Translations under genes and position numbers: made by a program
Source: a virus
DNA: 64,000 nucleotides
Reading direction: 5' to 3' (one strand)
Virus record (IMG/VR): IMGVR_UViG_3300025118_000005
Span: 15,503 to 79,502 of that record
The notes under the pieces: generated by a model
Databases searched by the model: none
Told to the model about the DNA's origin: nothing
What the model saw: only the letters and a program-made list of their open reading frames with translations
Shown: one piece after another, positions 1,324 to 44,490 of the stretch
Numbering within the stretch: the stretch's first letter is position 1
Layout of the letters: each line of letters starts with the position of its first letter

Positions 1324-1392
1324 TTGCACTGTATAAGGAAACAGGCTATACTTATTAAAGTGATGAGGGAAACCTTATCGGCTCTTTGAAAC
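1324..1392 (+). promoter_or_regulatory. sigma70 promoter followed by boxB-like hairpin and boxA-like antitermination motif
   Basis: TTGCAC(1324)-17-TATACT(1347); GATGAGG-GAAA-CCTTATC (1362-1379); GCTCTTTGAAAC (1381-1392). Confidence 0.7.
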
Positions 1393-1399
1393 AATTTAT

Positions 1400-1961
1400 G
1401 TTGCGGAAATTGGTGCGAAATCTCGTTTAGAGACTAGCAGTCTGGTAGCCGAAAGTGAATGCTCTGGGAAAACGTATCCATAACAAGGAGCAGGAGCGAA
1501 ACGATAGGTATCGGGCGGGGTTCGAATCCTCAACGCGACGACAATTTAGCATAGGTGACGGAACAAACGTCCGACAGAGGAAACGGCCTATGCGACAATT
1601 TAAGCTGACGACGGTCGGCTTAAGGGTATGGCTGAATATCCCTCCATCATAAGGGGAAAGGCATAGGGCCATGTGAGAGAGTGCAATCGTATGACTTGCA
1701 TGGTTCTAGTAAGCTGGAAACAAGAACTGTATTGTGCACTGGCTTTGTAGGTAATGCAGCAATCCTACTACCCATTAATTTTCGTGGTGCTGGATTACAG
1801 GCCATGATTAACAGACGCGCCTCAAACGGAAAGCAGGGAAGTATTCCACCTGTCGGCAAGAGAGGGAAGCCGTGGCGCGATAACTGAGAACTCACAATTT
1901 TTCCTGTGGTCGGTACAACCGTTAAAGAGATTGTAGGTACCAACGCCGAAGTCCGCCACGT
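1400..1961 (+). ncRNA. Array of four structured RNAs with tRNA-like ends
   Basis: Terminal stems 1400/1539, 1549/1593, 1624/1773, 1783/1960; GGTTCGAATCC T-loop at 1519-1529; AATTT linkers; no convincing ORF. Confidence 0.65.
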
Positions 1962-1978
1962 CACTTTTATATAAAGTG
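1962..1978 (+). terminator. Possible hairpin closing the ncRNA operon
   Basis: CACTTT-TATAT-AAAGTG; no U-tract. Confidence 0.3.
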
Positions 1979-2081
1979 GACGATATTATACTAGGCGGCG
2001 GGACCGGTCCCGAAATTGAGATTCAGTCTCATTACTTTTCTTCTTGACTCGGATACAGAAAAAGCTTATACTATAAAAACG

Positions 2082-3041: not shown

Positions 3042-3689
3042 ATGAAAGCCTACCACTACATCATCGGAGCAATTATTTTTATCCTTGTCACTTTGGCTGC
3101 GGCTAAAGATGTAAAAAAGCAAAGACAAGAATTAAGATTTCCTTTTCAAACTCAACCTGTTGAAGTAGACCAGACACTTCCCGAACAAGCACCGAAGCTA
3201 GACCCAAAAGAGTTAATGAGGAGAAAGCATCTCCGAATTATCGCTTGCACCTTGTTGGCAGAAGCGCGTGGAGAGGGTACGGATGGAATGTATGCTGTCG
3301 CCGCTGTCATATCACAACGAGCATTAAATCGTAAAATGCACCCAGTAGACGTTTGCTTACAAAGGAAACAATTTTCTTGCTGGAATAGCAAAAGCCTTGA
3401 TGCTTATAACAATCTTCTTGAATTAAAACCGTGGGGAGTATATGCCGTAAGAACAGCGAGGCTAGTCCTTGACGGTTACGAAAAGAATCAGTATTATCTT
3501 GCTCGTGAGGCATTTGGCTGGCCTGACCATTACCACGCTAAAGGAGTAAAGCCTTTTTGGACTAAAGGGCAACAGCCAGTGTGGATACTAAAGAATCATA
3601 TCTTTTACCGCTTAAACAAAAACGGAGTTCGTCATTATCCAGAAGGAACAGGCACACACTATAAACCAAAGCAATCGAAGTTCAAATAA
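3042..3689 (+). CDS. SleB/Hydrolase_2-family cell wall hydrolase with N-terminal membrane anchor
   Basis: TLLAEARGEG..GM.AVA.VI..R, QFSCWN, HYHA, HIFY motifs; hydrophobic N-terminus; promoter 3006-3034. Confidence 0.85.
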   Translation: MKAYHYIIGAIIFILVTLAAAKDVKKQRQELRFPFQTQPVEVDQTLPEQAPKLDPKELMRRKHLRIIACTLLAEARGEGTDGMYAVAAVISQRALNRKMHPVDVCLQRKQFSCWNSKSLDAYNNLLELKPWGVYAVRTARLVLDGYEKNQYYLAREAFGWPDHYHAKGVKPFWTKGQQPVWILKNHIFYRLNKNGVRHYPEGTGTHYKPKQSKFK

Positions 3690-3905
3690 AAAATAACTTC
3701 AAATAAAAAACAACTTCAAATATATTAAGAAGCCAAATAAAGAAGTTCGACCCGTCCCGCCGCCAAATATGGTTCGAAGAATATAACTGACAAATATGAC
3801 TCGAGAGATTTTTCTCGTGAGATTTTTCTCACGAGATTTTTTTTGAGATTTTTGAAAATGAGAATTTTTGAAGACGAAGATTTTTGAGATTTTCCCGATT
3901 TTTAC
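3678..3905. repeat. A/T-tract repeat array between convergent genes
   Basis: TTCAAATA x3 (3680-3722) then about eight (GA)GATTTTT units (3805-3903) either side of a GGGACGGGTC element. Confidence 0.8.
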
Positions 3906-4150
3906 CAATCGGGATATTCGTGGGCATCGTGCCATGCGTCATCCGCATACGTGCCATAGCCGTCATCCATGCTGCCGCCATCACCACAGCACCCACAGCA
4001 AGGCGCGTCCTCACAACGGGCATTCGCCTCGTCGTGATCTGCCTCAGTGGGCTCAGTGGGCTCATTCGCCCAATCGGCTGGCCCCATGTCCTCGGTGAAA
4101 GTTTCCTCGCAAGAAATGCGAGCGTCGTGGTTGTTGTTGTTATTCATCAT
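3902..4150 (-). CDS. Small acidic Cys/His-rich protein
   Basis: Minus-strand promoter TTGTAA-17-TACACT ends 6 nt before ATG 4150; RCEDAPCCGCC motif. Confidence 0.7.
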   Translation of the reverse strand: MMNNNNNHDARISCEETFTEDMGPADWANEPTEPTEADHDEANARCEDAPCCGCCGDGGSMDDGYGTYADDAWHDAHEYPDW

Positions 4151-5791: not shown

Positions 5792-5993
5792 GCCGATAAA
5801 AAAGTTAAAAAAAAGCTTGACACCGGCGGGACCGGTCCCTGAGACTCAGTCTCATTAGAGGTAGGACAATACCTGTCCCACCGTTAAAACTATTTTTCAG
5901 ACCCTCATTTGACCCCACAAAAACAGGGTTATTCTGACCGATTTATTTTCGCCCAGCCATTGACTTTTTGTCATTTATGGATTATATTTAGGT

Positions 5994-7696: not shown

Positions 7697-7859
7697 TTTG
7701 CGTTTGCAAGCATAGATTAGATTCGGCGATAAGTTTATAAAAAGACTTGACTTCTATAGGCGGCGGGACCGGTCCCGAGCGCCATATTGACACACGAAAA
7801 ACGCTATTTGTGCCACATTGTCTCTTGACTTTGTGTCTTTTATGTGGTATATTATAACA

Positions 7860-8699: not shown

Positions 8700-9132
8700 G
8701 ATTATGAAAAACCTATTAAATGCAATTGATGACCTCCTGTGGCCTTTGGGTACCGCTCTACTCGTAATCCTTGCGAGCGTGCATTTCGTGCCTATGTTTA
8801 TCGGCCTTTTGATTTTTTAAGTAGTCACTAAAACCTACGCTTGAGCCCTGAGCTTGTTATCTATTCCAAGCTTGTAACGAAACAGCGTGATGATTATGAC
8901 TGCGACCCCCCTAGGGGGTACCCCCCCGGGGGCATACCCTTGGGGGGGTTATTATACTATTAAAGGCTTGACATTATATAGCGGCGGGACCGGTCCTGCT
9001 TGGTACGTATACGTATAGTACGTATGCGTACAGTGTGTGTGTATGTGTGTGGTAGTACGTATGCGTACAGTGTGAATAACTTTTATTAAAAAAGCCCTTG
9101 ACAAATGCCTTGGTGTGTGTTATATTATTACC

Positions 9133-9783: not shown

Positions 9784-9992
9784 GGCGTACCCATCTACTA
9801 ACAAGCATGGACACAGGCTTATGTAAACAACACATACATCTTATATTAAAAGCTTGACATTGTATAGCATCGGGACCGGTCCCGTTATTGAGAATTAGTC
9901 TCATTACAATTGTGAATAACTTTTTCATATTATCGCTTGACTTTTTGTCATTTATGAGGTATACTATATGTATTGAGAGTGAGAGATTAAAG

Positions 9993-10210: not shown

Positions 10211-10585
10211 ATGAAAATGATTATGAAAGAACAAACTAACAAAGCAAACAACCTTCGCCTTGGAGCGATTTACATCAACACCAACACTGGCGCACCTTGC
10301 CGCTTGGTCAACATCGTTGCCTGTCAAGGCGTATGGTTAGAAGCCTATGACGGACAAGGCTATGGTGACCTTGTGAAATTCGAAGATGTAGCGTATGCTG
10401 ACACGGATGAAGTCCAAGACTATTTGGATGACTATCGTGCTTACACCGCAAGCGAGAAAGCTCCAGCATACAAGCCAGAGCGTGAGTATGCTTACGGCAA
10501 AGAGATTGTGCGTGACTCTGATGGCTCTGCTGTTATCGGATGGTACGATGACAATGATGGCAACGACATTCGTTGCAGAGACTAA
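10211..10585 (+). CDS. Hypothetical protein
   Basis: Extended -10 TGGTATACT, MKMIM start. Confidence 0.65.
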   Translation: MKMIMKEQTNKANNLRLGAIYINTNTGAPCRLVNIVACQGVWLEAYDGQGYGDLVKFEDVAYADTDEVQDYLDDYRAYTASEKAPAYKPEREYAYGKEIVRDSDGSAVIGWYDDNDGNDIRCRD

Positions 10586-11297: not shown

Positions 11298-12233
11298 TTA
11301 GTTTTGACCGCATCCTTGACAAGGGCCCTGAGGGTCTACCGATTTAGAGCGGGAGTTTTCATATTCTTTTCTATTAATATAATTTTCCATTGCTTCCTCT
11401 GCTTCTTCGCGACTAGGTGGATTTTTAAAGATATCTCTAGAATGGTCTTTAATAAGCTCCGAAAGACCCCAAAAAGTATTTCTATTATAATTGAGAGAAC
11501 CTTTATCAGCGGGACGAGAGGCGGTTACTCTATCGACCCCTCCTTCCTTTCGGATTCTATAACGATGTACGGGAGTATCATCATCTAGAGAAACCTGTTT
11601 GGAAGAATGGGCGACAGGAACGATATCTTTAATATATTTTAAATGATACCATAATAAAAGATCTTCGAATCCAGTATTGAATATCTTGTGTTCGGGGAAG
11701 AAAACTCCATCTTCTGGCAAAAAGTTACAATCAAATAAAGTAGCCCAAGGTCCGAATCTAAGGGTATCTACAGAATATTGAGCATTATTAATTCGAGGCT
11801 GAAAGGGGAATGGATTTTTTTCCCACGCTCCGACAACGAAAGGAGAATTTTTCTCAACGGCGGTATGTATCATATTCGGACGTTCGGGTAACATGTCGTC
11901 GTCTGCGTCCATAAATAAAATTGATTGATAGTCTTCTTTAAAATTATGCGCTTCTTTAATAAGGCGGTTTTTTGCTTCTCCCACTGTAGAAGCTTTATCG
12001 TATTCGTATAAATGAACCTTGTCTGCGGTTATCCTGCCCGCCTCTACATATCTAGCTAACTCTACTAAAGAGTTATCTGTAGAATCATCATCTCCAACCA
12101 AAAGTATCCAACTTTTATCTTTTAAAGATTCATCTAGGCTAAGAAGGCAATTTTCTAAACAACTTTCTTCATTGTACATGGAAAGCAATACTTGATAGCC
12201 ATGTCTCTCGGGTTGATATTCGTTTGACCACAT
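11298..12233 (-). CDS. GT2-family (GT-A) glycosyltransferase
   Basis: VLLSMYNEE..L..CL.S, VGDDDSTD, A.N, FMDADD, ED motifs. Confidence 0.85.
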   Translation of the reverse strand: MWSNEYQPERHGYQVLLSMYNEESCLENCLLSLDESLKDKSWILLVGDDDSTDNSLVELARYVEAGRITADKVHLYEYDKASTVGEAKNRLIKEAHNFKEDYQSILFMDADDDMLPERPNMIHTAVEKNSPFVVGAWEKNPFPFQPRINNAQYSVDTLRFGPWATLFDCNFLPEDGVFFPEHKIFNTGFEDLLLWYHLKYIKDIVPVAHSSKQVSLDDDTPVHRYRIRKEGGVDRVTASRPADKGSLNYNRNTFWGLSELIKDHSRDIFKNPPSREEAEEAMENYINRKEYENSRSKSVDPQGPCQGCGQN

Positions 12234-12279
12234 ATTTACTTGATTTTTTACAAGATAACATATATTATAAAATAGTCAA

Positions 12280-13146
12280 ATGAAAGGTATAATTTTAACT
12301 GGAGGACACGGTTCAAGGCTATATCCTTCAACCTTGGCTACGAACAAACAGCTTTTACCCGTCTTTGATAAACCCATGATCTATTATCCGTTGACGACGT
12401 TAATGGAAAACGGCGTTAATGATATTTGTATTATTACAAACCCTGCCTCCACGTCGAACTTCAAAAAATTAATGGGAGATGGGTCTCAGTGGGGTATAAA
12501 AATTATATACAGAGTCCAAAAAGAGCCCAAGGGGATTCCCGAGGCATTTTTAATTGCTAAAAGCTTTCTAAAGCGTGACGACGGAGTAGTTTTGATACTC
12601 GGAGACAATATTTATTATGGAGCAAATGATATTTTGCAAGATGCTTTTTATAATTTTAGTTCAGGCGGTACGATCTTTGGTTATCGCGTGGAAGACCCAA
12701 GACGATATGGGGTTGTAGAGATGCAAAGCAATAAAGTTTTATCTCTCGAAGAAAAACCCAAAAAGCCTAAAAGCAATTTCGCTATACCGGGACTCTATCT
12801 TTTTGACTATGACGTAATCGAAATTACAGAAAAATTAAAACCCTCTAAACGTGGCGAGCTTGAGATTACAGACGTTATGAAAGCGTACCTTCGTGATGAT
12901 GCCCTAAGTGCATTTAAGCTCCCTAGAGGAACAGTGTGGCTCGATGCGGGTACTTCTAGTAGCCTGTTTGATAGCTCCGCGTACGTTCAGACGATTGAAA
13001 AGCGACAAGGCGTAAAAATTGGCTGCCCAGAAGAAGCGGCTTACCAACAGGGTTACATTAACAAGACACAATTAAGAAAATTAATAAAAAACACTCCTGA
13101 TTGTGAGTATAAAAATTATCTATTAACAATATTAAAAAATGAATAA
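12280..13146 (+). CDS. rmlA: Glucose-1-phosphate thymidylyltransferase
   Basis: GIILTGGHGSRLYP, KQLLPVFDKPMIYYPL, LILGDN, EKP, RGELEITD, WLDAGT. Confidence 0.97.
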   Translation: MKGIILTGGHGSRLYPSTLATNKQLLPVFDKPMIYYPLTTLMENGVNDICIITNPASTSNFKKLMGDGSQWGIKIIYRVQKEPKGIPEAFLIAKSFLKRDDGVVLILGDNIYYGANDILQDAFYNFSSGGTIFGYRVEDPRRYGVVEMQSNKVLSLEEKPKKPKSNFAIPGLYLFDYDVIEITEKLKPSKRGELEITDVMKAYLRDDALSAFKLPRGTVWLDAGTSSSLFDSSAYVQTIEKRQGVKIGCPEEAAYQQGYINKTQLRKLIKNTPDCEYKNYLLTILKNE

Positions 13147-13723
13147 CACAGAATGTAATCATGTACTAACAAAAATAGCTTCTAAGTATAAAGCTTATAC
13201 AGATAAGTGCCCAATGAGCGAGTATAACATCCAACATGTATATACTGAGATTTATGGGCCTTTATTCGAGCATTTAAGGTATGAGCCCGTAAGATTACTC
13301 GAAGTTGGTGTTAGATGGGGCGGTTCGTTGGCAATGTGGCGTGATTTTTTCCCTAACGCAGTAATTTATGGGGTAGATATTAACCTCTCTCAGATGGTCG
13401 GTGAGCTAAAATCTGTAAATGTTATAGAAGGAAATGCGTATGACGAAGATTTTGCGAAAAAACATTTTGAAAATACAGAATTTGACATTATGATTGATGA
13501 CGGAACCCACGCGGAAAAAGACATTATAAAGTATTTTAACATTTATCGTAAATATTTAAAAAAAGGCGGTTATTTAATTGCTGAAGACATCGCGACTATT
13601 GAATTAGCAAGAAACGTTATCGATAATTTTAACGGGCCTATTAATAATATGAGCATAATTGATAGAGCTCATTGTATTCCTTCAACGAGAGGAGAGAGAA
13701 TGATCATGTATAAAGGCTGCTAA
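13139..13723 (+). CDS. Class I SAM-dependent methyltransferase
   Basis: LLEVGV..GGSL..W..FFP, FDIMIDDGTH, LK.GG.L..ED. Confidence 0.85.
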   Translation: MNNTECNHVLTKIASKYKAYTDKCPMSEYNIQHVYTEIYGPLFEHLRYEPVRLLEVGVRWGGSLAMWRDFFPNAVIYGVDINLSQMVGELKSVNVIEGNAYDEDFAKKHFENTEFDIMIDDGTHAEKDIIKYFNIYRKYLKKGGYLIAEDIATIELARNVIDNFNGPINNMSIIDRAHCIPSTRGERMIMYKGC

Positions 13724-13926
13724 TGAAAAAAGAAAATTATTTTAATAAACTTAAGTCTCCTATTCCCCAGCATCTTACTCCAGAAGAGAGGGAAAGGTGG
13801 GAAGAGGAGCACGAGTGGGAATTACAGGAAAGAGCGAGACGTAGAAAAGAGGGTTTTTATGATCAAAAGCCTAAAAAGAAAAATATAGGTTGGAAACTTA
13901 TACAAAAATTGTTTAAAAAGAGCTAA
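13723..13926 (+). CDS. Hypothetical charged protein
   Basis: Translationally coupled (TAATG). Confidence 0.5.
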   Translation: MKKENYFNKLKSPIPQHLTPEERERWEEEHEWELQERARRRKEGFYDQKPKKKNIGWKLIQKLFKKS

Positions 13927-13938
13927 AAAGGATCATTA

Positions 13939-14862
13939 ATGGTATTACTTTTAGGAGGAAGCGGATATATAGGCAATCAGTTTTTAAAAGAACTGAAGAA
14001 AATGGGCATAAATACTTATGACTTATCTCGTTCTGAATATGATTACTATGATGTAGACACACTAAGGCGCTTAATAAAGACTAAGGGGATTAAATTTTTA
14101 ATTAATTGTGCTGGGTATACTGGTAAACCCAACGTGGACGCTTGCGAAGATAATCAAAAGGAAGCCCTTCGAGGAAACGTGACGCTTCCTAGAGTCATAG
14201 CAAAAGCCTGTAGGTACTCAAAGGTTCCTTGGGCGCACGTCTCTTCGGGATGTATTTACAATGGAACCAAGGGGGCTAATGGATTTACTGAAAAGGATGT
14301 ACCTAATTTTACATTTGACTATGGTAACTGTAGTTATTATTCTGGTACAAAGGCTATGGCAGAAGAAGCACTATTGAAAGAATCAGATCAATGTTATATT
14401 TGGAGGTTAAGGATACCGTTTGATGAATTTGATGGATCAAGAAATTATTTGTCTAAATTAATGCGTTACCCAATGCTCCTAAGCGTTGATAATTCTATTT
14501 CTCATAGGGGAGATTTTGTTAAATATTGTCTAGCGTTATGGCAAGCGAAAGCAGATTTTGGTATATATAATGTAGTTAACACCGGTGCAGTAACAGCAAA
14601 ACAAATAACGGAAAAAATGAAGGAGATATTAAATAATGATATGTCTTTTAAGTTTTTTCAATCTGAACAGGATATGTATAGTTTAGGTGCCGCTCGTACC
14701 CCACGTTCTAATTGTGTTTTAGATAATACTAAGTTAAGAAAAGCCCTTTACCCCAAAAGGGTTCGTACCGCTCTCAAAGCTGTAGAGCATTCACTTAAAC
14801 ATTGGATAGAAGAAGGTAAAGAAAAAAAAGATAATGGAATCCCCAATTCGTATTGGGATTAA
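13939..14862 (+). CDS. RmlD-like NDP-sugar reductase, NRS/ER-type (possibly bifunctional 3,5-epimerase/4-reductase)
   Basis: GGSGYIG, NCAGYTGKPNVDACE, SSGCIY, YSGTK, RLRIP. Confidence 0.8.
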   Translation: MVLLLGGSGYIGNQFLKELKKMGINTYDLSRSEYDYYDVDTLRRLIKTKGIKFLINCAGYTGKPNVDACEDNQKEALRGNVTLPRVIAKACRYSKVPWAHVSSGCIYNGTKGANGFTEKDVPNFTFDYGNCSYYSGTKAMAEEALLKESDQCYIWRLRIPFDEFDGSRNYLSKLMRYPMLLSVDNSISHRGDFVKYCLALWQAKADFGIYNVVNTGAVTAKQITEKMKEILNNDMSFKFFQSEQDMYSLGAARTPRSNCVLDNTKLRKALYPKRVRTALKAVEHSLKHWIEEGKEKKDNGIPNSYWD

Positions 14863-14977
14863 TTATTTTAATTATTGTTGTTTTATTTGCCATGAGAAAA
14901 GAAATTAAATTTCCATCTAGCCCCCCTCCTGTTGACGATGGAAATATATACTTTCTATTAACGAATATAAATAAATT

Positions 14978-15790
14978 ATGAAGATTATCGCTGAGATTGG
15001 TATAAATCACAATGGAGAAGTCTCTTTGGCTAAAAAGCTAATCGACATTGCTTTAATTGCTGGATGTAGCCATGTAAAGCTTCAAAAGCGTAATCCAGAC
15101 CTCTGCGTACCCGAACATCAAAAAAACGTCTCTAAGAGTACTCCTTGGGGCAATATGACCTATCTGGAGTATAAGCACAGAATCGAATTTAACCATAAAC
15201 AATATAAAGAGATATTTGACTATTGTGATCTTAAAGGCATAAAGTGCTTCGCGAGCGTTTGGGATAAAGACTCTGTAGACTTCATGATGAAATATGCCGA
15301 TATGGCAAAAATCCCTTCTGCTTTAATCACTGATTTAGAATTATGTGAATACGCGAGGTGGAAGAACAAAGAACTATTAATCTCTACAGGTATGTCCACA
15401 GAAGAGGAAATAGAGCAGTGTGTTGAAGCTTGTAGTCCAGATGTAATTTTTCATACCAACTCTACTTATCCGGCTCCCGTCTCAGAGCTTAACCTTTCGT
15501 ATATAACTTGGTTAAAGGAGAAATACCCTCATTCAATTATTGGATATAGTGGACATGAATACGGTTTGGTCCCAACGTTTGCTGCTGTTGTCATGGGGGC
15601 GGAATATATTGAAAGGCATATTACCCTAGATCGAACAATGTGGGGGTCTGATCAAATGGCCTCGGTAGAGCCTGCGGGATTAATCAAAATGGTCAAAGCT
15701 ATTAAAGATCTCAAATCAAGCGTGGGTCATGGAGGCCCACGTGAATTGTTAGAGAGTGAAAAAGCCAAAAGACAGAGTCTAAGAAAATGA
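14978..15790 (+). CDS. neuB: N-acetylneuraminate synthase family protein (short, no C-terminal SAF domain)
   Basis: IIAEIGINHNG, VKLQK, ISTGM, GYSGHE, IERHITLDR. Confidence 0.92.
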   Translation: MKIIAEIGINHNGEVSLAKKLIDIALIAGCSHVKLQKRNPDLCVPEHQKNVSKSTPWGNMTYLEYKHRIEFNHKQYKEIFDYCDLKGIKCFASVWDKDSVDFMMKYADMAKIPSALITDLELCEYARWKNKELLISTGMSTEEEIEQCVEACSPDVIFHTNSTYPAPVSELNLSYITWLKEKYPHSIIGYSGHEYGLVPTFAAVVMGAEYIERHITLDRTMWGSDQMASVEPAGLIKMVKAIKDLKSSVGHGGPRELLESEKAKRQSLRK

Positions 15791-16815
15791 AACGAGCCTT
15801 ACATCTATTTCCATCCGACGGACATAATAACTCTGGAGATTTTATTATAGGCCCCGCAACGAAATGGCATTTCGAAAAAAATATTGTAAAAGAAGAAATA
15901 GAGTGGTCCAACAAAAATGTTAGGGATTATTTTGAAGATAAAGATGCTGACATGGTTAATAAGTATGATTATTTATTAATTGGAGGAGGTGGTTTAATAT
16001 TACCCGATACTAACCCTAATAATATATCATGCTGGCAATGGCCCGTATACTGTGATACTCTAAGAAAAATAACTGTCCCTATTTATGTTTTATCTATAGG
16101 TTATAATCTATTTTATAACCAAAAAATTACCATGATGAACCAAGCGGTCCCATCAGAGATTCCGCAAAGGTCTACTATTTTCAAAAACAATATTGAGACT
16201 TTAATTGAAATTAGCAAGCATTTTTCGTTAAGGCATAATGGAGATTGTGACCGACTAAAAGAAATCGTTGATCCAGAGTATCATGATAAAATCAAATTTG
16301 AATTTTGTCCCACTATAGAGTTTTCTAAAGATTATAAAGAGAAACACAAATTATCGTCCGATACAAGGGATATATACGCATTTGAGGTTAAAGACGATAG
16401 ACCAGATAGGAGATATCATAATACATCCAGACAAATTTTTTATGATCACTTAAAGAATTTTATTCTGCATCTTTTATCCTTAAACAAAAAAGTTTGTGTT
16501 TTATCTCATGACGGAAGCACGTCTTTTAAATCTTATCTTGATAAAGTAGGCGTAAACGTGGGCTTTATTAGTAACGCTTTTTCTACGGAAGAAAAAATTA
16601 TATCCAATTACTTAAAGATCGACAAATTATTTTGTATGGCTGGACACAGTCAAATGATGGGGCATGCGCTGGGATGTAACGTGATTAGCATGATCAGCCA
16701 TAATAAACAAAAATACTTCTTAGAAGACATAGGGGAATATATCGATAACAAATATGTTGATGTTAACAACGAACATGTATATAGTAAACTAATGGGAATA
16801 TATGAACAAATATAA
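15787..16815 (+). CDS. Polysaccharide pyruvyl transferase family protein
   Basis: NSGD, LIGGGGL, SIG, SLR, H near C-terminus. Confidence 0.7.
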   Translation: MKRALHLFPSDGHNNSGDFIIGPATKWHFEKNIVKEEIEWSNKNVRDYFEDKDADMVNKYDYLLIGGGGLILPDTNPNNISCWQWPVYCDTLRKITVPIYVLSIGYNLFYNQKITMMNQAVPSEIPQRSTIFKNNIETLIEISKHFSLRHNGDCDRLKEIVDPEYHDKIKFEFCPTIEFSKDYKEKHKLSSDTRDIYAFEVKDDRPDRRYHNTSRQIFYDHLKNFILHLLSLNKKVCVLSHDGSTSFKSYLDKVGVNVGFISNAFSTEEKIISNYLKIDKLFCMAGHSQMMGHALGCNVISMISHNKQKYFLEDIGEYIDNKYVDVNNEHVYSKLMGIYEQI

Positions 16816-17416
16816 TCCGCACAACCCTCACGTAAGCCCAACGGAGATAAAGCGATCTTTATCTAAGCATAAAACCGAAGAGCACATAGACTATAAAAGT
16901 TTTTATAATGAAATAAATTATATTTCCCCGGGTATTCATATGCGAAGCTATTATGATGTTTGCGTGGGTAAACTTAATGAGGGAGAAAAGTGGTTAGACG
17001 TAGGCTGTGGGTGCGCAAATTTTTTAAAACAAGCTATATCCGATAAAAATATAAAGCTTTACGGAATGGACGTAGTTGACGAAAGTGTTACTCGCGCGAT
17101 TAAGAACGGGGTTAATTGTATTAAAAATTCCGCGTCAGACCCATATCCTTATGAAAATGAAAGTTTTGATATGGTTACCTCAACGGACGTGTTAGAGCAT
17201 TTACATCCGAACGATGTAGACAAAGCTTTAAAAGAAATATTCAGGGTAGTAAAAAATAATAGGCACGCCCTCTTAGCTCCAGCAACGACGCCCGACCTAA
17301 CGGGGCTCTTGCACCTTACCGTGCAATCCAGAGATTGGTGGGTGAAGAAACTACAAGAAACGGGCTTCCAATTAGTTTCATACGTTGCCTACAAAGGAAT
17401 TCTTTTGCGCAAATGA
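16802..17416 (+). CDS. Class I SAM-dependent methyltransferase
   Basis: LDVGCGC, SFDMV...DVLEHL, EIFRV. Confidence 0.9.
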   Translation: MNKYNPHNPHVSPTEIKRSLSKHKTEEHIDYKSFYNEINYISPGIHMRSYYDVCVGKLNEGEKWLDVGCGCANFLKQAISDKNIKLYGMDVVDESVTRAIKNGVNCIKNSASDPYPYENESFDMVTSTDVLEHLHPNDVDKALKEIFRVVKNNRHALLAPATTPDLTGLLHLTVQSRDWWVKKLQETGFQLVSYVAYKGILLRK

Positions 17417-18048
17417 AAACTTTTTCTCTTATCTTGGCTCGAGGAGGGAGCAAGGGTATACCTAATAAAAATATAATCAAATTGGGTCATATTCCCCTCA
17501 TTCAATATTCTATAGAAGCCTCTAAGGCGTCCAGTGTTGACCAAACATGGGTAAGTACAGACTCTTTAAAAATAAGAGACACCGCAGCTAAGTTGGGAGC
17601 ATTTGTTATAAACCGGCCAGACGAAATTTCCCAAGATAATTCAAAAAGTGACGAAGCTCTAGTCCATTTTGCGAAAAATATAGATTTTGATATATTAGTA
17701 TTTATTCAGCCCACTTCTCCCCTACTTAAAGCGAAAGACATTGATAAGGGGATACAAATGATGAAAGACTATGATTCCGTCTTTTCCGTTTACAAAGAGC
17801 ACTGGATTCCCGAGTGGAATTTGAATGGAACCCCTTATCATTGGGATATCGCTAATCGGCCGATGAGACAAGACGTTCCCGAAACTTATGTGGAAAACGG
17901 AGCTTTTTATATTACTACTAAAAAAGCCTTGTTAAATTCTGGGTTAAGATATAGCGGTAGAATAGGGATGACGGAGATGCCCAAGAATAGAAGCTTTCAA
18001 ATAGATACTCCAGATGACTTAGAATTAGTAAAAAAGCTTTTATATTAA
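17413..18048 (+). CDS. neuA: Acylneuraminate cytidylyltransferase
   Basis: ARGGSKGIPNKN, VSTDS, QPTSP, ENGAFY, IDT.DD; ATG 17413 overlaps the upstream stop. Confidence 0.92.
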   Translation: MKTFSLILARGGSKGIPNKNIIKLGHIPLIQYSIEASKASSVDQTWVSTDSLKIRDTAAKLGAFVINRPDEISQDNSKSDEALVHFAKNIDFDILVFIQPTSPLLKAKDIDKGIQMMKDYDSVFSVYKEHWIPEWNLNGTPYHWDIANRPMRQDVPETYVENGAFYITTKKALLNSGLRYSGRIGMTEMPKNRSFQIDTPDDLELVKKLLY

Positions 18049-18073
18049 TTCGTTCCATGCTATAATTAATAGT

Positions 18074-18778
18074 ATGAATAAATTTGTAGAAGACTTTCAA
18101 GAAAACGGATTTGCTCTAGTTAAAGGCGTTCTTACCGGGAAAGAGAACGAAAATTTTAGAAAAATAGTCGAAGAATACTTCGCTGATCATCCGAGTTTAA
18201 AATTCAGCGGAGGAAGATGTCTGGGCGGATATACCAATATCACACCAGAGCTAAAAGAGCTAAACACCTTTCACGAAGACAAAAAAATGTTAGATATCGC
18301 TAAGGCTATTCTCGGAGAAGGTTTTATTTTCGCAGGGCATAGTGACCTTCACCAAGACAAAACAACAGATTGGCATAGAGATATTCTAATGGGGCCGTAT
18401 AAAATATATCAACAACGTGACCTGTGGGATGATGATTATAAAATTATTAAAATCGCATTTCTGTTACAGGATCATAGTGACAATGATTACGGGCTATGGG
18501 TTGTCCCTAAATCACATAATAGGCGAGACGATGATCCCTCTGTGAGAGCCGAGGGAGAGTATTGTGTACATAGTGAAGTGGGAGACGCGATTGTATTTGA
18601 CCAAAGAATATTACATAGAGGACAGCTATTATCTCAATATGTAGAGGAGTATAATCAATCGAGGTATTTAATTACATTCGGATACGGACTAGACAATACT
18701 CATACGGCCGAGCACGCACGAGGCACCGCAGCGAGACAGCAAGATCAACGAAGGAATCTTACTTACAAAAATGGCTAA
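18074..18778 (+). CDS. PhyH-like Fe(II)/2-oxoglutarate dioxygenase
   Basis: F.ENGF, WHRD, L.VVP.SH, GDAIVFD.R..HRG. Confidence 0.8.
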   Translation: MNKFVEDFQENGFALVKGVLTGKENENFRKIVEEYFADHPSLKFSGGRCLGGYTNITPELKELNTFHEDKKMLDIAKAILGEGFIFAGHSDLHQDKTTDWHRDILMGPYKIYQQRDLWDDDYKIIKIAFLLQDHSDNDYGLWVVPKSHNRRDDDPSVRAEGEYCVHSEVGDAIVFDQRILHRGQLLSQYVEEYNQSRYLITFGYGLDNTHTAEHARGTAARQQDQRRNLTYKNG

Positions 18779-19463
18779 ATTAAAAAAAATATCTGATTCT
18801 GACTTTGATCTTAATAAATCAGTAATTATTGCTGGTAAAGGCCCTACTATATCTAATGTCGAAAAGTTTTTAAGTGGGAAAGACCTAAATGACTTTTATA
18901 TTTGCGGGGTTAATACCGCTTACCAGCTTTTGCCTAAAGTAGATTTTTTATCTTTCTGTGACACAAATGTCTTAGATATTTTAAACAAAAATAGAAAAGA
19001 CTTTAATAAAATTAAGAGCCTTGTCTGCCCGTTGGTCTTGAGAAAGATGTATGACAACGGAATGTGCTTCGACACGGATAAGACTTATGAGTGGCTTCTG
19101 GAAGAGCTAAAAGATCTAGATATAAATATATATAATTTTAAATTATTTACTCAGCACTTATTTTTAGAAATAGATAGCGGAAAGATGGATGATTTTTATT
19201 TTAAAAGCTGCGGGGAAAAAGCAAAGTCAATTCCTCCTGAAGATACTTTAACAAGTAGCTATCATTGTGGATTATTGTGGTTAACGAAAGCGGGTTTCAA
19301 GGATTTTCATATTTTTGGAGTAAGCCAGCAAAACGAATATCACGCTTCTTTTAGCGAAAGTAATGATTGTGGAAATGATAGAGATAGTAAATGGTACGCA
19401 GAAAACTCGTTGAAGGGAGAGAGTATTTTAGAGGAAAATCACTGTAAATATCAATATCACTGA
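18771..19463 (+). CDS. Maf/sialyltransferase-like protein
   Basis: VIIAGKGPT, ICGVN, D.L.F.D, GFK...IFGV pattern; adjacent to neuA/neuB. Confidence 0.55.
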   Translation: MAKLKKISDSDFDLNKSVIIAGKGPTISNVEKFLSGKDLNDFYICGVNTAYQLLPKVDFLSFCDTNVLDILNKNRKDFNKIKSLVCPLVLRKMYDNGMCFDTDKTYEWLLEELKDLDINIYNFKLFTQHLFLEIDSGKMDDFYFKSCGEKAKSIPPEDTLTSSYHCGLLWLTKAGFKDFHIFGVSQQNEYHASFSESNDCGNDRDSKWYAENSLKGESILEENHCKYQYH

Positions 19464-19493
19464 CCCTCAAAAAGTGTATTATAATTAGAGGCT

Positions 19494-20468
19494 ATGAATC
19501 TTTTAGTCACAGGTGGAGCAGGTTTTATCGGAACCAATTTCGTTAAAATGATGCTAAGAAAAAGAACGGGCGTTAAGTTATTAGTCGTCATGGACAGTCT
19601 TACATACGCTTCTGATTTTAGTAACCTCGAAGAAGATCTAGACGATTATGCTGATTTTAAGTTTGCTAAAGTCGATATAAAAGACGATAAATATATTGAT
19701 TCGACCTTCGAAAAATATGGTATTACCCACGTAGTACATTTTGCAGCAGAAACTCATGTAGACAATTCTATTATCGGGCCAAGAGCTTTTGTAGAGACGA
19801 ACATCCTCGGGACCTTCAATCTTTTAGAGTCTGCTAGAAAACATGAGGTGGAAAGGTTTCATCATATCTCTACTGACGAAGTATTCGGTCATTTGGGAGA
19901 AAAGGGTAAGTTCACAGAAGATACTCCTTATGCTCCTAGGAACCCGTATTCGGCTTCTAAGGCGTCTTCTGACCATTTGGTAAGGTCATACTACCATACG
20001 TACGAATTACCTGTGACGATCTCAAATTGCTCTAATAATTACGGCCCCTATCAACATGAAGAGAAACTTATTCCTACCATTATTAATTCCATTTTAAAAA
20101 GAAAAAAAATACCAGTATACGGCCAAGGTTTAAACGTAAGAGACTGGATACATGTCGATGATCATTGCGACGCGCTATTAACTGTCTTGAAGAAGGGCGT
20201 CCCGGGAGAAACATATAATATCGGAGCCAACTGCGAAAAAAGAAATCTTGATGTTATTGTCTCTATTTGCGATATCTTAAAAGTAGAGCTCGAAGACTGT
20301 ACAGAATTTGTTTGTGACAGATTAGGCCATGATTTTAGATATGCCATAGACGCTTCTAAAATTATAAAAGAATTAAAGTGGAAGCCTAAGATCCCATTCG
20401 AAAAGGGTATTAGTAAGACCGTAGCGCATTATAAGAGTAAATATGATACTGAATTTAGAGACTTATAG
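19494..20468 (+). CDS. rmlB: dTDP-glucose 4,6-dehydratase
   Basis: TGGAGFIG, HFAAETHVDNSI, STDEV, YSASK, NCSNNYGP, RDWIHV, GHD.RY. Confidence 0.96.
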   Translation: MNLLVTGGAGFIGTNFVKMMLRKRTGVKLLVVMDSLTYASDFSNLEEDLDDYADFKFAKVDIKDDKYIDSTFEKYGITHVVHFAAETHVDNSIIGPRAFVETNILGTFNLLESARKHEVERFHHISTDEVFGHLGEKGKFTEDTPYAPRNPYSASKASSDHLVRSYYHTYELPVTISNCSNNYGPYQHEEKLIPTIINSILKRKKIPVYGQGLNVRDWIHVDDHCDALLTVLKKGVPGETYNIGANCEKRNLDVIVSICDILKVELEDCTEFVCDRLGHDFRYAIDASKIIKELKWKPKIPFEKGISKTVAHYKSKYDTEFRDL

Positions 20469-20484
20469 CGTGTAAATATAATTA

Positions 20485-21273
20485 ATGCTTGATAAACAAG
20501 TCAAATCAAAAGGGAAAGTCAAGATCAGAGGAGACAAAAAACTCGCGGAAGATCTAAACGAAACCAAAAACAAATATATTGCCGAAAACCCAATTGAAAG
20601 GCAAATTAAAATCAACCAATTTCCTTGGACGGAAAAACAAAAAGAATTTTTCAGAATAGCTTTAGATTATAATACTAAAATTATTTTCGTTAACGGCCCA
20701 GCAGGGACCTCTAAAACCCTTTTGTCCACTTATTGCGGATTGCAGCTTCTCAACATGAAGGCTATTTCAGACATTATGTATCTTCGATCTGCCGTGGAGA
20801 GCTCAGAAAAAAGTCTGGGGTATTTACCCGGAGACGCTAACGAAAAATTAAGATTTTATAATTTACCTTTTCTGGATAAGCTAGACGAACTATTAACTAC
20901 GACTAAACCAGAAAAGCTAGAAGAGCAACGTAGGATTTCTATGTTCCCAGTCAATTTCGCGAGAGGAATGAATTGGAAGGGAAAATGTATTATACTTGAT
21001 GAAGCTCAGAACTCTACAATAAAGGAGGTCGTGACCGTTCTTACGAGAATGGGGCAGGGCAGTAGGTGTTTCGTTTTAGCGGACCCGATGCAAACGGACC
21101 TTAGAAGCGAGAGTTGTCAGGGAGCGTTTGAAAACTTATCAAAACTATTCTCAGACGAAGAAAGCGCAGCAATGGGAATTTATACGTTTAACTTCTCCGA
21201 GGAGGATATTATGAGATCAGAGTTAGTTAAATTTATAGTCCAAAAAATAAACAAAGAAGGAGAAAGCAAATGA
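20485..21273 (+). CDS. phoH: PhoH-family ATPase
   Basis: GPAGTSKT, LGYLPG, RG, IILDEAQN, LTRMG, DI.RS. Confidence 0.92.
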   Translation: MLDKQVKSKGKVKIRGDKKLAEDLNETKNKYIAENPIERQIKINQFPWTEKQKEFFRIALDYNTKIIFVNGPAGTSKTLLSTYCGLQLLNMKAISDIMYLRSAVESSEKSLGYLPGDANEKLRFYNLPFLDKLDELLTTTKPEKLEEQRRISMFPVNFARGMNWKGKCIILDEAQNSTIKEVVTVLTRMGQGSRCFVLADPMQTDLRSESCQGAFENLSKLFSDEESAAMGIYTFNFSEEDIMRSELVKFIVQKINKEGESK

Positions 21274-22052
21274 GTGACCAAGCAAGAACTAAAAAAGAAG
21301 TAGAAGCCGACTTGTTACTCAAGCAAGCCGAACTAAAATATAAAGAGGCCGAGATTGAAAAGACTAAAGCCGAAACCAAGAAGGTCCAAGCAGAAGCTGG
21401 AAAAGCTCAGCTAGAATTTGAAAAGGCCCACAACTCTAGAAGCAAAGAGTTATATACGGACGAAGAAAATTATTTATATAGATTCTCTAAAGACGTAAAC
21501 CACCATTCCGTACAAGCATGTATGAGCAAGCTCACAGAATGGCATCGTAAAGACTCCAAGTGCAAAATAGAAATCGTTTTTTCTTCTCCCGGAGGAAGTA
21601 TCGTTGACGGATTTGAATTATTTGATTTCATTCAAGAACTTAGATCTAAAGGTCATCATATCTCGACGGGCTCGTTGGGTATGGCCGCTTCTATGGCGGG
21701 AATCCTTCTCCAAGCTGGAGACACTAGGTGGATTGGTCATCAAGCATGGTTGATGATTCACAGAGCCGCGTTCGGAGCCATAGGTAAAACGTATGAGATA
21801 GAAGACGAAGTAAGACTTGTTAAAAGAATCGAAGAGCGCGTCCTAGATATCTTTACATCAAGATCCAAGCTCAGCAAGCGCAGGCTCAAAAGAAACTGGG
21901 ATAGAAAAGATTGGTGGATTGACGCAGACGAATGTCTAGAGTTAGGTTTGGTAGACGAAATTAAAGCTATGATGCCAGAGCACCAAGTTAGCGCCAAAAG
22001 CAAAAAGAAGGTTAAAAAAAATGTACGGAAAGCTAAAAAAAGTTTGGAATAA
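21270..22052 (+). CDS. clpP: ClpP-family protease with N-terminal coiled coil
   Basis: SPGGS, AASMA (Ser), LMIH (His), DWW (Asp), LGLVDEI. Confidence 0.85.
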   Translation: MSDQARTKKEVEADLLLKQAELKYKEAEIEKTKAETKKVQAEAGKAQLEFEKAHNSRSKELYTDEENYLYRFSKDVNHHSVQACMSKLTEWHRKDSKCKIEIVFSSPGGSIVDGFELFDFIQELRSKGHHISTGSLGMAASMAGILLQAGDTRWIGHQAWLMIHRAAFGAIGKTYEIEDEVRLVKRIEERVLDIFTSRSKLSKRRLKRNWDRKDWWIDADECLELGLVDEIKAMMPEHQVSAKSKKKVKKNVRKAKKSLE

Positions 22053-22114
22053 AATTAGACATTGGGGCTGTAAAGTAGGATTATGTAATCTAGACAGGTG
22101 CAAATGCCAATGTC

Positions 22115-22834
22115 ATGAAAATAAGTAATTCACATAAGTTTATTTTTTTATCTAACCCGAAGTGTGGCTCTAGTTCACTAAGGAGGACTTTATATCCTTA
22201 TAGTCAGATAGACGCGCATAGTTTATATAAAAATGCTCCGTCGGGAAATAAAGAAATTATAAAACAAAATTTCATTAATATACTACATATAAGCGCTAAG
22301 GAGCTTAAGCACAGTATTAATCAATCAAACCTTCCTGATATATGGGACGAGTATTATACATTTAGTACAGTTAGAAATCCTTGGAGAAAAATGGTTTCTT
22401 GGTACTTTTTCCTTCAGCCCGATAAAAATATGTTAACGATACTAGATGCTCGTAACGCCTATGATATAGACTCTGCCTATACTCCGCACTTTAATGATTT
22501 TGTAGACCATTTGGCCAATAACGCCCGAGAGACCCTTCTTCCTAGTTATGATTTCTTTTTTAAAGACTGGGATACCGGAGCGGAACTTATGGATGATGTT
22601 TTTAAACTGGAAGACCTAGACGCTACGCTCCCTCCCCGTCTCGAAGAAAAGACAGGCCTTAAGCTGGAGACTCCCTTGCCTAATTATATGCCAGATTTTA
22701 AATTAGAAGCTCAATCCAAGCATGTTAAATTTAAAGGCGACCCTTACGATTTATACAACGAATCTTCCAAACAATTCGTTAGTGAGTTCTACAAAAGTGA
22801 TATAGAAAAATTTGATTATTCCTTCGGAGAATAA
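22115..22834 (+). CDS. Sulfotransferase family 2 protein
   Basis: 5'-PSB NPKCGSSS; 3'-PB VRNPW.KMVSWY; C-terminal Y..D...F.Y. Confidence 0.85.
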   Translation: MKISNSHKFIFLSNPKCGSSSLRRTLYPYSQIDAHSLYKNAPSGNKEIIKQNFINILHISAKELKHSINQSNLPDIWDEYYTFSTVRNPWRKMVSWYFFLQPDKNMLTILDARNAYDIDSAYTPHFNDFVDHLANNARETLLPSYDFFFKDWDTGAELMDDVFKLEDLDATLPPRLEEKTGLKLETPLPNYMPDFKLEAQSKHVKFKGDPYDLYNESSKQFVSEFYKSDIEKFDYSFGE

Positions 22835-22842
22835 TTAGTCTC

Positions 22843-23010
22843 CTATTCAATTTCTCTGTGGTCTATTAACTTCAACAATGCGTAAGCTTTGTTATTAATC
22901 ATACTTAACTCGACACTAATCCCGGGGTCATCATGTTTACAAAAAGGAAAAGATATGTCTAGTATCTCGTTTATTAGTTTTTTTGCTTCTTCTTTACCGT
23001 CTTTGCTCAT
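22843..23010 (-). CDS. Hypothetical protein
   Basis: Fills the gap on the minus strand; start probably MSKDG. Confidence 0.4.
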   Translation of the reverse strand: MSKDGKEEAKKLINEILDISFPFCKHDDPGISVELSMINNKAYALLKLIDHREIE

Positions 23011-23078
23011 GCTATATCTTACAGAAATAAGCACAAAAAATCAATAAAATATTGAAAAGTATGGTATAATATAATGTT

Positions 23079-23477
23079 ATGCTAAAGACATATTGTCAAA
23101 ATTGCGGGTCATTAAATCAATACGTATCAGAAAAACCTAATTTTTGTAACAAGTGTGGAATTAAATTTTCTCACGCTTTAGCCACCTCTGATACAGAACT
23201 TAAGGTCGACGCCTTCGGCGTGGTAGAAGAGGTCGTTGTCGATGACCCCGATCAAACCATAACAAATATTTTAAAACTGGGAGGGCTAGATGTAGAGATA
23301 GATATGACCAATCGGCCCATAGGCGATACTGTCGGTAGCTTAATGGGAACTAGTGAAGAGGGCACCCATCCCGGATCGACCACGGGTATAGACGAAAAAT
23401 ATACCATGGAAGATTTCGAGAGAGAGGCTGGCTCTGTGAGAAAACAAGACAGTGGAAATGAAAAAGAAGAAACCTAA
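23079..23477 (+). CDS. Double zinc-ribbon protein
   Basis: YCQNCG...FCNKCG. Confidence 0.7.
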   Translation: MLKTYCQNCGSLNQYVSEKPNFCNKCGIKFSHALATSDTELKVDAFGVVEEVVVDDPDQTITNILKLGGLDVEIDMTNRPIGDTVGSLMGTSEEGTHPGSTTGIDEKYTMEDFEREAGSVRKQDSGNEKEET

Positions 23478-24183
23478 GAAAAAAACAGCGAAGAAGTCGG
23501 GGGAAAAGGAAAAAGGTTTTGAGGATTACATAGAAATTATCAATGAGGAAATATCAAAAAAAAGGTACAAATGGAATTTAACTTCTTTAGCTTGGCTAGA
23601 TTTTGAAGATGTATCTCAGATATTGAGATTTCATATTTTTAAAAAATGGCACTTATATGACCAAAGCAAAAATATTAAGCCTTGGATAAGAACCATTATA
23701 GCTAACCAAATAAAGAACTTAATTAGAAATAATTATACGAACTTTATTAAACCCTGTTCTCGATGCGAGGCTACTAGAGGAGAAGAGGGCTGCGAGATTT
23801 ACGAAAAACAATGTAGCGCTTGTCCTTTATATAAAAATTGGGAAAAAAATAAAAAAGCTGGCTTCGCGGCTAAGATGCCCGTGCCGCTTGAGAGCTATAG
23901 GCAGGAAGCGTTCTATATTGAAAATAATCAGTCTTTGGATATAGAAAGGTGCGCGACGATATTACATGAGAAAATGGAGGAGGCATTAAAGCCTCATGAA
24001 TGGAAAATTTATAAATATTTATACATAGACCATCTAGACGAATTAGCGGCCGCTAAAAAAATGGGGTATAAGACTTCGGAAAAAAATAGGTCTCCGGGGT
24101 ACAAGCAGATTAAAAATGTCAAAAAAAGAATAATAGCTAAAGTAAAAGACTTAATAGAAAAAGACGAAATAGATATTTGGTGA
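23452..24183 (+). CDS. Sigma-factor-like protein with Cys-rich insert
   Basis: DFEDVSQ...W..YD.....W...I..NQIKNL.R resembles sigma region 2; C-terminal HTH-like segment; CxxC..C..CxxC insert. Confidence 0.7.
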   Translation: MEMKKKKPKKKTAKKSGEKEKGFEDYIEIINEEISKKRYKWNLTSLAWLDFEDVSQILRFHIFKKWHLYDQSKNIKPWIRTIIANQIKNLIRNNYTNFIKPCSRCEATRGEEGCEIYEKQCSACPLYKNWEKNKKAGFAAKMPVPLESYRQEAFYIENNQSLDIERCATILHEKMEEALKPHEWKIYKYLYIDHLDELAAAKKMGYKTSEKNRSPGYKQIKNVKKRIIAKVKDLIEKDEIDIW

Positions 24184-44485: not shown

Positions 44486-44490
44486 ATAAT

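Follow-up and report, generated by a model that had tools for sequence, protein, structure and literature searches.

What is produced from the 770-base gap that separates a GP88-family gene (481-1242) from a small open reading frame (ORF) at 2082-2462 in the IMG/VR virus record IMGVR_UViG_3300025118_000005? The DNA analysed here, referred to as the window, is a stretch of 64,000 nucleotides (nt) that comprises positions 15503-79502 of this 79.5-kb record, which is estimated to be about 48% complete; unless a locus is named, positions are those of the window. An earlier note, made from the letters alone, had described 1324-1978 as an operon in the style of ribosomal RNA (rRNA) operons, coding for four non-canonical RNAs that are split by AATTT linkers. 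The present study supports a self-contained operon of this style with several structured RNAs and conserved AU-rich linkers, and the array is confirmed as a real operon that produces folded RNAs only, with four modules (Units 1 to 4) arranged behind a leader similar to that of rRNA operons. We moreover consider it likely that the region 1324-1985 of this virus, a marine tailed phage that has not been cultured, is an independent unit of transcription that yields RNA only. The analysis established sequence conservation, covariation of paired positions, shuffling of modules between loci, a match of Unit 3 to the manA RNA family, similarity of the leader to known leaders and the presence of terminators in relatives. 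Our confidence in any specific role of Units 1, 2 and 4 is much lower than that in the operon itself.

The promoter, a hairpin with GNRA tetraloop and a boxA-like element were all present at the sites given in the earlier note (Table 1). The promoter has a -35 element that falls under the cut-off of the promoter scan; the same form, an A-tract and GCTTGnAC followed by the -10 element, heads the homologous operons of the related loci L003/L007, L018 and L020 (loci are designated by L numbers throughout). Transcription may start at about 1359-1361. The leader hairpin folds with a free energy of -9.8 kcal/mol (z-score -3.45), and a GNRA-type hairpin is kept in the relatives with stems of different sequence. 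The operon is not translated, and close to its 5′ end the hairpin is directly followed by the consensus-like sequence GGCUCUUUGAAACAA (1380-1394), a site that is unique within the window. The boxA consensus of Escherichia coli reads UGCUCUUUAACA, and the boxA-like element of the Bacillus subtilis rrn operons (AUGAUCUUUGAAA) is located just past a small 5′ hairpin and binds NusB (PMC13753749). The phage leader resembles such rrn-type leaders in that a long transcript without translation starts with a small hairpin and, directly behind it, GCUCUUUGAAACAA; it differs from them in preceding a phage operon of small RNAs, not rRNA, and in having a sequence intermediate between the two consensuses. 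Clear boxA-like sites are found in seven distinct related leaders; GAUCUUUGAAA is read exactly in the leaders of L007 and L020, and two related leaders carry GYUCKUUGACAAUUU. Leaders with a boxB hairpin and a boxA also precede CRISPR arrays and suhB. By analogy, the leader of the present operon may load antitermination factors of the Nus type (NusB/S10). The 17-nt boxA-like word gave at least 120 matches in bacterial genomes, of which 82 (80 loci) were inspected and none was located upstream of a 16S gene; these matches mostly look like chance occurrences in coding sequence and provide neither a clue to the host nor a test of the boxA.

The first module, Unit 1, could be followed into other phages. 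A gapped pattern built from two copies of Unit 1 and scanned over metagenome contigs returned 36 stretches, 22 of which are true homologs (18 distinct sequences) and all of marine origin; the remaining stretches are ordinary transfer RNAs (tRNAs) that matched by chance. Four patterns for Unit 1 and manA, scanned over IMG/VR, found only one other viral contig. In the alignment of the 18 sequences (174 columns), 54 positions of the window copy are invariant. The consensus consists of a terminal helix of six base pairs (bp), a single-stranded GAARUUGG, a P2 hairpin of variable length and a long-range helix P3, formed by GUCUGR with YAUCGGGC, that encloses three further helices in a domain of ≈85 nt. 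P3 is directly followed by the arm GGGG-UUCGAAU-CCUC, which two A residues separate from the 3′ half of the terminal helix. The same topology is obtained when the window copy is folded as a single sequence. Standard pairs occupy 94% of the cells of this consensus and 15 of the 35 pairs are changed on both sides, compared to 36-50% paired cells and 3-6 such pairs in controls in which the 3′ partners were slid by one to three columns. In the terminal helix, for example, pair 1 is found as G-C, G-U or A-U, pair 2 as C-G, U-G or U-A, and pair 4 as A-U, G-C or G-U. The covariation that had been suggested as a check of the earlier note is therefore present in Unit 1, and the stems of Units 2 and 4 covary as well. 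With a covariance model derived from this alignment (R1), all members reach scores of 104-138 bits, the window copy 127 bits. R1 also detects a divergent copy in L004 (30 bits; 100-230 of that locus, with the T arm GAGG-UUCGAGC-CCUC and the tail UAACAUUUU) and a second copy in L031. The latter (3702-3774 of that locus) is cut by the contig end and lies ≈3.5 kb from the first copy behind its own promoter-like leader, so that one phage can carry two such operons.

How close does Unit 1 come to a tRNA? Its stem and T arm, and likewise the stem of Unit 2, are present at the places claimed in the earlier note, which had however concluded that none of the units forms a cloverleaf. This conclusion does not hold for Unit 1, as four helices meet at one junction in a cloverleaf topology in which the ≈85-nt domain takes the place of the anticodon arm. 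If G7-A and one non-canonical layer are counted, acceptor and T stems may stack to 12 layers as they do in tRNA. The T arm and GGAARUUGGUGC are invariant among the 18 homologs; since GGAARUUGGU equals the D loop GGAAUUGGU of a tRNA-Leu of the cyanophage S-CREM1, Unit 1 appears to have retained the two G residues that build the elbow of a tRNA together with the T loop. The D-loop-like segment of the window copy reads GGAAAUUGG. Unit 1 thus combines an acceptor stem on a T arm with a T loop of the form UUCRANU and the GG of a D loop. A D stem at the usual place and an anticodon arm are absent. The discriminator can be G, A or U, position 3:70 is occupied by a C-G or U-G pair, and the encoded tail is N-ACA-AUUU, not CCA. 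The tRNA-like ends that had been attributed to all four units are genuine in Unit 1 and are confined to it. As the earlier note had expected, no canonical tRNA or transfer-messenger RNA (tmRNA) was called: ARAGORN detected neither in the window nor in the first 15.6 kb of the record, and Rfam searches of 1200-2150 at E-values up to 10 returned no tRNA (RF00005), tmRNA or other family for Unit 1. Unit 1 is a new, uncatalogued and well-supported family of tRNA-like RNAs.

Unit 1 shares with the known mimics of the upper half of tRNA (tmRNA, YrlA and viral tRNA-like structures) an acceptor-type helix stacked with a T arm, a T loop whose sequence is that of tRNA, a GG capable of forming the elbow, and the replacement of the anticodon arm by something else. 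Assignment to tmRNA, YrlA or ordinary tRNA was nevertheless rejected. A tmRNA is not indicated by any ARAGORN or Rfam call, G3:U70 is absent, and 140 nt leave no room for a tag frame. In contrast to YrlA, the ends of Unit 1 pair to an acceptor stem instead of a Ro-binding stem, and Rfam gives no match; a TROVE/Ro60 domain was not found among the window proteins scanned, the record covering part of the phage. An ordinary tRNA is at odds with the lack of an ARAGORN or RF00005 call and with the ≈85-nt domain in the position of the anticodon arm.

The earlier note had counted four non-canonical RNAs in the array. All four are structured, but Unit 3 is a member of a catalogued family, manA, and one of only two Rfam matches in the window (the other is a distant group I intron, see below). 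Both stems seen in the earlier note are real, the outer GGGUA/UACCC stem and the 3′ hairpin GUAGG...CCUAC; the module does not start at 1624, however, but at 1603, as the 5′ CGACGG hairpin (1603-1620) belongs to manA. Some of the inner stems are shortened or absent in the window copy, which scores ≈73 bits compared to ≈170 bits listed for the copies of T4-like cyanophages. Like most known members, the window copy comes from a marine phage; it is one module of a boxA-led RNA-only operon and has a tRNA-like RNA as a neighbour. The family was described in 2010 by Weinberg et al. as a likely riboswitch or cis-regulatory candidate of 5′ untranslated regions (5′ UTRs) (PMC2864571). The window copy is not located in the 5′ UTR of a gene, since Unit 4, a repeat element and another promoter lie between it and the next gene; such a location is part of the functional hypothesis on manA and not of the Rfam model. 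More recently, other manA members were shown by cryo-electron microscopy to assemble in vitro into decamers and an icosahedral 60-mer cage, in a preprint that contains nothing on tRNAs or operons (10.64898/2026.07.01.735769).

The association of manA with Unit 1 is not restricted to the window. In 17 of the 18 distinct loci, the operon of Unit 1 also contains manA or a manA-like variant; L023 is the only one with neither. The Rfam gathering score of manA is reached in ten loci. Five loci carry a longer manA-like variant with the same 5′ CGACGG hairpin, a 3′ hairpin of the form GCAGGUAAU...AAUCCUGU and a closing stem, and this variant is not detected by Rfam at an E-value of 0.05. In S-CREM1 (OP535465), manA (record positions 10215-10429) begins 2 nt after a tRNA-Leu and ends where a tRNA-Asn begins; in this arrangement it must be released by tRNA processing. 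A blastn search of the phage collection with the S-CREM1 manA matched only itself. Within 900 nt on one strand of S-CREM1, which is a cultured phage (L044, 1246-2145), manA, wcaG and abiF RNAs are interleaved with six tRNAs, and ARAGORN finds an unannotated tRNA-His(atg)-like gene at 1469-1540. S-CREM1 and the T4 tRNA region, which gives rise to RNAC and RNAD, two RNAs of no known role (PMC3014915), resemble the present operon, as tRNA-shaped elements alternate with structured RNAs of 50-200 nt in one common transcript; the comparison with RNAC and RNAD is based on the description in that review. The present record differs in that it has no genuine tRNA and that its only tRNA-shaped element is devoid of an anticodon arm; in addition, the operon possesses a leader of the boxA type and conserved linkers of the form ACAAUUU.

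Every operon compared is built in the same way, with promoter and leader followed by modules that are separated by (N)ACAATTT, TTAATTT or CATTTT, whereas the order of the modules changes. Unit 1, Unit 2, manA and Unit 4 follow each other in the window; the order is Unit 1, manA in L014, L021, L024 and L040, Unit 2, Unit 1, manA-like in L020, and manA ahead of Unit 1 in L035, and Unit 2 precedes Unit 1 also in L023. In L003/L007, a promoter of the same form precedes a leader hairpin and GATCTTTGAAACAATTT; behind these lie a homolog of Unit 1 (70% identity) and an ACAATTT linker. A different second module and a manA-like module ending in CCATTAATTT come next, with the promoter of the following gene immediately behind them. 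In L014, L024, L029, L039 and L040 the array ends with a 13-bp hairpin and a run of seven U (-21.5 kcal/mol, z-score -6.6), after which a new promoter is found. The genes downstream of the array differ between loci. Terminator and new promoter in relatives, varying downstream genes and shuffled modules together argue for an independent unit of exchangeable modules. In the window, the next gene has its own promoter at 2044-2072, which speaks against the RNA array as its 5′ UTR. A protein-coding signature conserved across the region would have refuted the earlier note, but no reading frame is conserved across 1324-1985: no ORF recurs among the homologs, and the lengths of Unit 1 (134-152 nt) differ by non-multiples of three.

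The 3′ limit of the array is less obvious. No homolog of the last ≈70 nt (1912-1985) was found among the relatives. Downstream lies a GC-rich palindrome with the core CGGGACCGGTCCCG, of which the early region contains five copies on the + strand (1994-2012, 5822-5840, 7759-7777, 8980-8998 and 9866-9884; 0.02 expected). These copies are intergenic and often flanked by TTGAC-type words, and analogous GC hairpins stand between TTGACA and TGTCAA in related phages. The palindrome might serve as terminator, as operator or for processing, and its copy at 1994-2012 probably marks the end of the RNA unit.

The modules are joined by short AU-rich linkers. Units 1 and 2 had been noted to end in what looked like a discriminator followed by ACA as a CCA-like triplet. 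N-ACAATTT indeed follows Unit 1 in nearly all homologs (N being G, A or U), and the ACA tail always continues into AUUU. The resemblance to CCA is weakened, as ACAATTT is also found after the boxA-like element and inside Unit 4; instead of mimicking CCA at tRNA-like ends, the motif looks like a linker or cleavage signal of general use. The real tRNAs of L004 encode CCA. With 15 copies in 64 kb (≈20 expected), ACAATTT shows no overall excess; four of the copies (1391, 1541, 1595 and 1894, all +) belong to the array, three at module boundaries and one inside Unit 4. The manA and manA-like modules of the relatives end in CCA-(C/U)(A/U)AAUUU. Classic RNase E sites read ACAG(A/U)AUUUG, and RNase P cuts, as far as is known, any helix with a 3′ NCCA-like tail. 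Both enzymes are candidates for cleavage at the linkers.

Units 2 and 4 are, from the sequences compared, conserved but less well defined than Unit 1. Unit 2 has five distinct homologs. Covariation is seen in its outer stem (AUAGG/CCUAU, UUGGG/CCCAA and CAAGG/CCUUG), the sequence inside is conserved, and Unit 2 folds with a z-score of -3.04. The complementary pairs named for Unit 4 in the earlier note are present, but the proposed closure of the entire unit by CGTGGTG/CGCCACG is not conserved and is replaced in the relatives by a local hairpin, CGUGG and CCAUG around a 14-nt loop. The loop of this hairpin 4a (UGCUGGRUUAYAGG) recurs with different stems in six loci (L008, L024, L028, L029, L030 and L039) and is directly followed by a U run in L008. 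Domains homologous to 4b, which share its closing stem but vary in the inner hairpin, were recognised by eye in L008 (319-401), L029 (701-783) and L030. The second pairing that had been named, GATTACAGG/CCTGTGGTC, is supported by one compensatory change and is not significant in the single sequence: in L024/L029/L039 the loop contains AUUAUAGG and CUAUAGUCC stands at the equivalent place downstream (loop U instead of C in the window, partner A instead of G), and when a single sequence is shuffled, 12-43% of the shuffles also allow 9-10 bp between the loop and the segment downstream of it. A pseudoknot between the loop of 4a and CCUGUGGUC is therefore tentative. At least three further conserved RNA modules are present in related operons (L007, 9036-9130; L014/L040, after manA; L017 and L023, upstream of Unit 1; L004, 240-335; L028, ≈3945-4030), and Rfam scans of those loci detect none of them. 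Their motifs are CUUGGCAA.CCUAACG in one, CUUGGUCGAUGUAACCU...GGCGAACC in another and AAAGCUGGGUGCAGUCAUGUGGCACAG in the third.

Table 1 Features of the RNA array and its flanks (window positions)
Feature	Position	Strand	Sequence and basis
Sigma-70-type promoter	1324-1352	+	TTGCAC (1324-1329), 17 nt, TATACT (1347-1352); A-tract and GC ahead
Leader hairpin, boxB-like position	1362-1379	+	7 bp, GAAA tetraloop, GAUGAGG-GAAA-CCUUAUC
boxA-like element	1380-1397	+	GGCUCUUUGAAACAAUUU (GGCTCTTTGAAACAATTT); directly 3′ of the leader hairpin
Unit 1, 140-nt tRNA-like RNA	1400-1539	+	GTTGCG/CGCGAC and GGGG-TTCGAAT-CCTC; alignment, covariation, fold
Linker	1540-1547	+	G + ACAATTT, between Units 1 and 2
Unit 2, 45-nt hairpin-type RNA	1549-1593	+	GCATAGG/CCTATGC; conserved internal sequence
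Linker	1594-1601	+	G + ACAATTT, between Units 2 and 3
Unit 3, manA RNA (Rfam RF01745)	1603-1778	+	72.7 bits (gathering 55.2), E 1.5e-16, model 1-192
End of linker	1779-1782	+	End of TTAATTTT (1775-1782); follows manA
Unit 4a hairpin	1783-1806	+	14-nt loop UGCUGGAUUACAGG; loop conserved, stem covaries
Unit 4b three-way-junction domain	1814-1879	+	CGCGCC/GGCGCG closure; homologous domains, fold agrees
Segment complementary to 4a loop	1903-1911	+	CCUGUGGUC; tentative pseudoknot
3′ extension	1912-1985	+	AU-rich hairpin (≈1958-1982); folds, status uncertain
GC-rich palindrome	1994-2012	+	Core CGGGACCGGTCCCG; intergenic repeat
Promoter of next gene	2044-2072	+	TTGACT, 17 nt, TATACT

How might such an operon work? 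Expression would begin at the sigma-70-type promoter and yield a transcript of ≈600 nt, the first 40 nt of which, with the GNRA hairpin and the boxA-like element, would load factors of the NusB/S10 type and thereby prevent a stop by Rho on the untranslated RNA. The transcript would then fold into four autonomous modules, each with its own terminal helix. Cleavage of the single-stranded linkers (N-ACAAUUU, UUAAUUU) by RNase E and/or RNase P would free stable RNAs of about 140, 47, 176 and 130-200 nt. Unit 1, as the upper half of a tRNA without anticodon arm, is most likely read by RNase P and by enzymes that recognise the elbow, and this recognition would set its own ends as well as those of its neighbour. 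The processing by tRNA-maturation enzymes that had been proposed in the earlier note is plausible for Unit 1. In S-CREM1 the real tRNAs that flank manA would do the job of Unit 1. The released manA would act as a free RNA in trans and not as a cis-regulatory switch. A more far-reaching version, which we regard as improbable, assumes a cooperating RNA-only device: tRNA enzymes of the host cut out the modules at the tRNA-like element, manA cages form in the infected cell, and Unit 1 and the small modules join these cages as cargo, as adaptors or as parts that assemble with them, or Unit 1 independently blocks a host factor that reads the elbow. If true, this device would be a phage-encoded ribonucleic ‘organelle’ that requires no dedicated proteins.

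Unit 1 could alternatively be the functional centre of the operon, a tRNA mimic that serves as decoy or inhibitor of a host elbow-reading factor (a defence nuclease or a CCA-modifying toxin might be the target) or as a cofactor of the ribosome or of tRNA enzymes. We hold this to be possible but rather doubtful. The T arm, the D-loop-like GG and ≈20 positions of the inner domain are invariant in 18 diverged sequences while the acceptor stem varies freely, which suggests selection beyond the need of a cleavage signal; L023 has Unit 1 without manA, and L031 has the second Unit 1. The missing anticodon arm, on the other hand, means that defence nucleases that cut anticodon loops would not be decoyed, and variation of the discriminator and of the first four acceptor pairs makes aminoacylation by one synthetase unlikely; pair 3:70 is not the G-U of alanine identity. 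Genes for a partner protein (Ro60, RNA ligase or CCA enzyme) were not found by domain scans of the ≈50 window proteins, an absence limited by the record containing only part of the phage. A role as mimic or decoy, as it had been put forward in the earlier note, is speculation, and for manA the RNA-only cages obtained in vitro are the sole functional data.

Three other readings deny that the array is a set of free RNAs. It could be a long cis-regulatory 5′ leader in which a manA riboswitch and accessory structures control the ORF at 2082-2462, in line with the original description of manA as a 5′-UTR riboswitch candidate, with the manA of the cyanophage P-SSM2, 16 nt upstream of purL, and with the lack of a canonical terminator between Unit 4 and the next gene in the window. 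Yet that gene has its own promoter, relatives show a strong terminator and a new promoter past the array, downstream genes and module order vary, and the manA of S-CREM1 is cut out by flanking tRNAs, so that we give this explanation little credit. Even less probable is a decayed tRNA cluster, with Unit 1 as a tRNA pseudogene that has acquired an insertion and the rest as degenerate spacer. Four viral contigs, L003/L007 and L004 among them, were found by a search with the GP88-family neighbour protein, and in L004 a real tRNA-Cys and a real tRNA-Asp with encoded CCA occupy the equivalent place after the GP88-family gene (3107-3258); Unit 1 also retains D-loop and T-arm sequences derived from tRNA. 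Purifying selection and compensatory changes in all helices of Unit 1 including the inserted domain, the existence of 18 distinct conserved copies in different phages, and a ‘spacer’ that is manA above the Rfam threshold stand against decay, and the covariation comes close to refuting it. Small proteins, finally, could be encoded, as ORFs of 65-105 codons exist (for example 1455-1652 (+), 1681-1887 (+) and 1647-1964 (-)); with no ORF conserved in homologs, insertions and deletions that are not multiples of three, and substitutions that are compensatory for RNA pairing, hardly anything speaks for this assumption.

Several points weigh against an independent RNA-only unit as we propose it. A terminator scan of the window reported no canonical terminator ahead of the gene that follows Unit 4, and read-through into that gene is therefore possible. 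The boxA-like element departs from both published consensuses, and one group of relatives has a U-rich variant only. The manA copies of the cyanophages P-SSM2 and P-HM1 lie directly upstream of genes with no tRNA nearby, and a tRNA or tRNA-like neighbour is thus frequent but not universal for manA. The conserved ≈85-nt domain exceeds the needs of a processing handle, for which reason Unit 1 probably has a function of its own. The available RNA-library contigs, which are assembled and come from relatives, cannot define transcript ends or strand. These contigs, from four RNA libraries, cannot show expression level either and may include DNA, and they were not used as evidence; the same applies to one contig of 237 nt that runs from Unit 1 across the linker into the manA hairpin, and to short manA contigs in which adapter sequence is found at 1617 and 1624.

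Nearly all long ORFs of the window are on the + strand; Pfam and PHROG scans identified, among others, a large terminase, tail-fibre proteins and a cluster of sugar-nucleotide genes, and found no RNA-handling enzymes among the ≈50 window proteins. Neither the region of the array nor the first 12 kb matched the GenBank phage collection by blastn or megablast, and the record is without a close relative there. A block of lower GC content (0.35-0.39) at 11298-24183 carries sugar-nucleotide and polysaccharide genes. It encodes a CTP_transf_3 cytidylyltransferase, a GT2 glycosyltransferase, methyltransferases and two proteins similar to nucleotide-sugar epimerases, and probably represents an auxiliary module for surface glycans. 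The group I intron (RF00028, 67.7 bits, 44470-44683, +) is located 21 nt past the stop codon of a tail-fibre/baseplate-like ORF (42959-44449) and ahead of the ORF 44806-45195, and may interrupt a structural gene. A protein of 1789 amino acids (56216-61585, +) combines a Laminin_G_3 domain with an intein/HINT splicing domain at residues 934-1081.

In summary, manA, an orphan riboswitch candidate since 2010, is found here as one product of an RNA-only operon with an rRNA-style leader. Its nearly constant pairing with a tRNA-shaped RNA and the tRNAs that flank it in S-CREM1 point to manA as a free RNA with defined ends. A free manA fits the cages reported in vitro in 2026 (10.64898/2026.07.01.735769), and the operon supplies a testable biological frame for them. 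The present study adds an uncatalogued family of tRNA-like RNAs with 18 distinct members and strong covariation, together with several further conserved modules, and suggests that phages use antitermination of the boxA type to express long untranslated RNAs.

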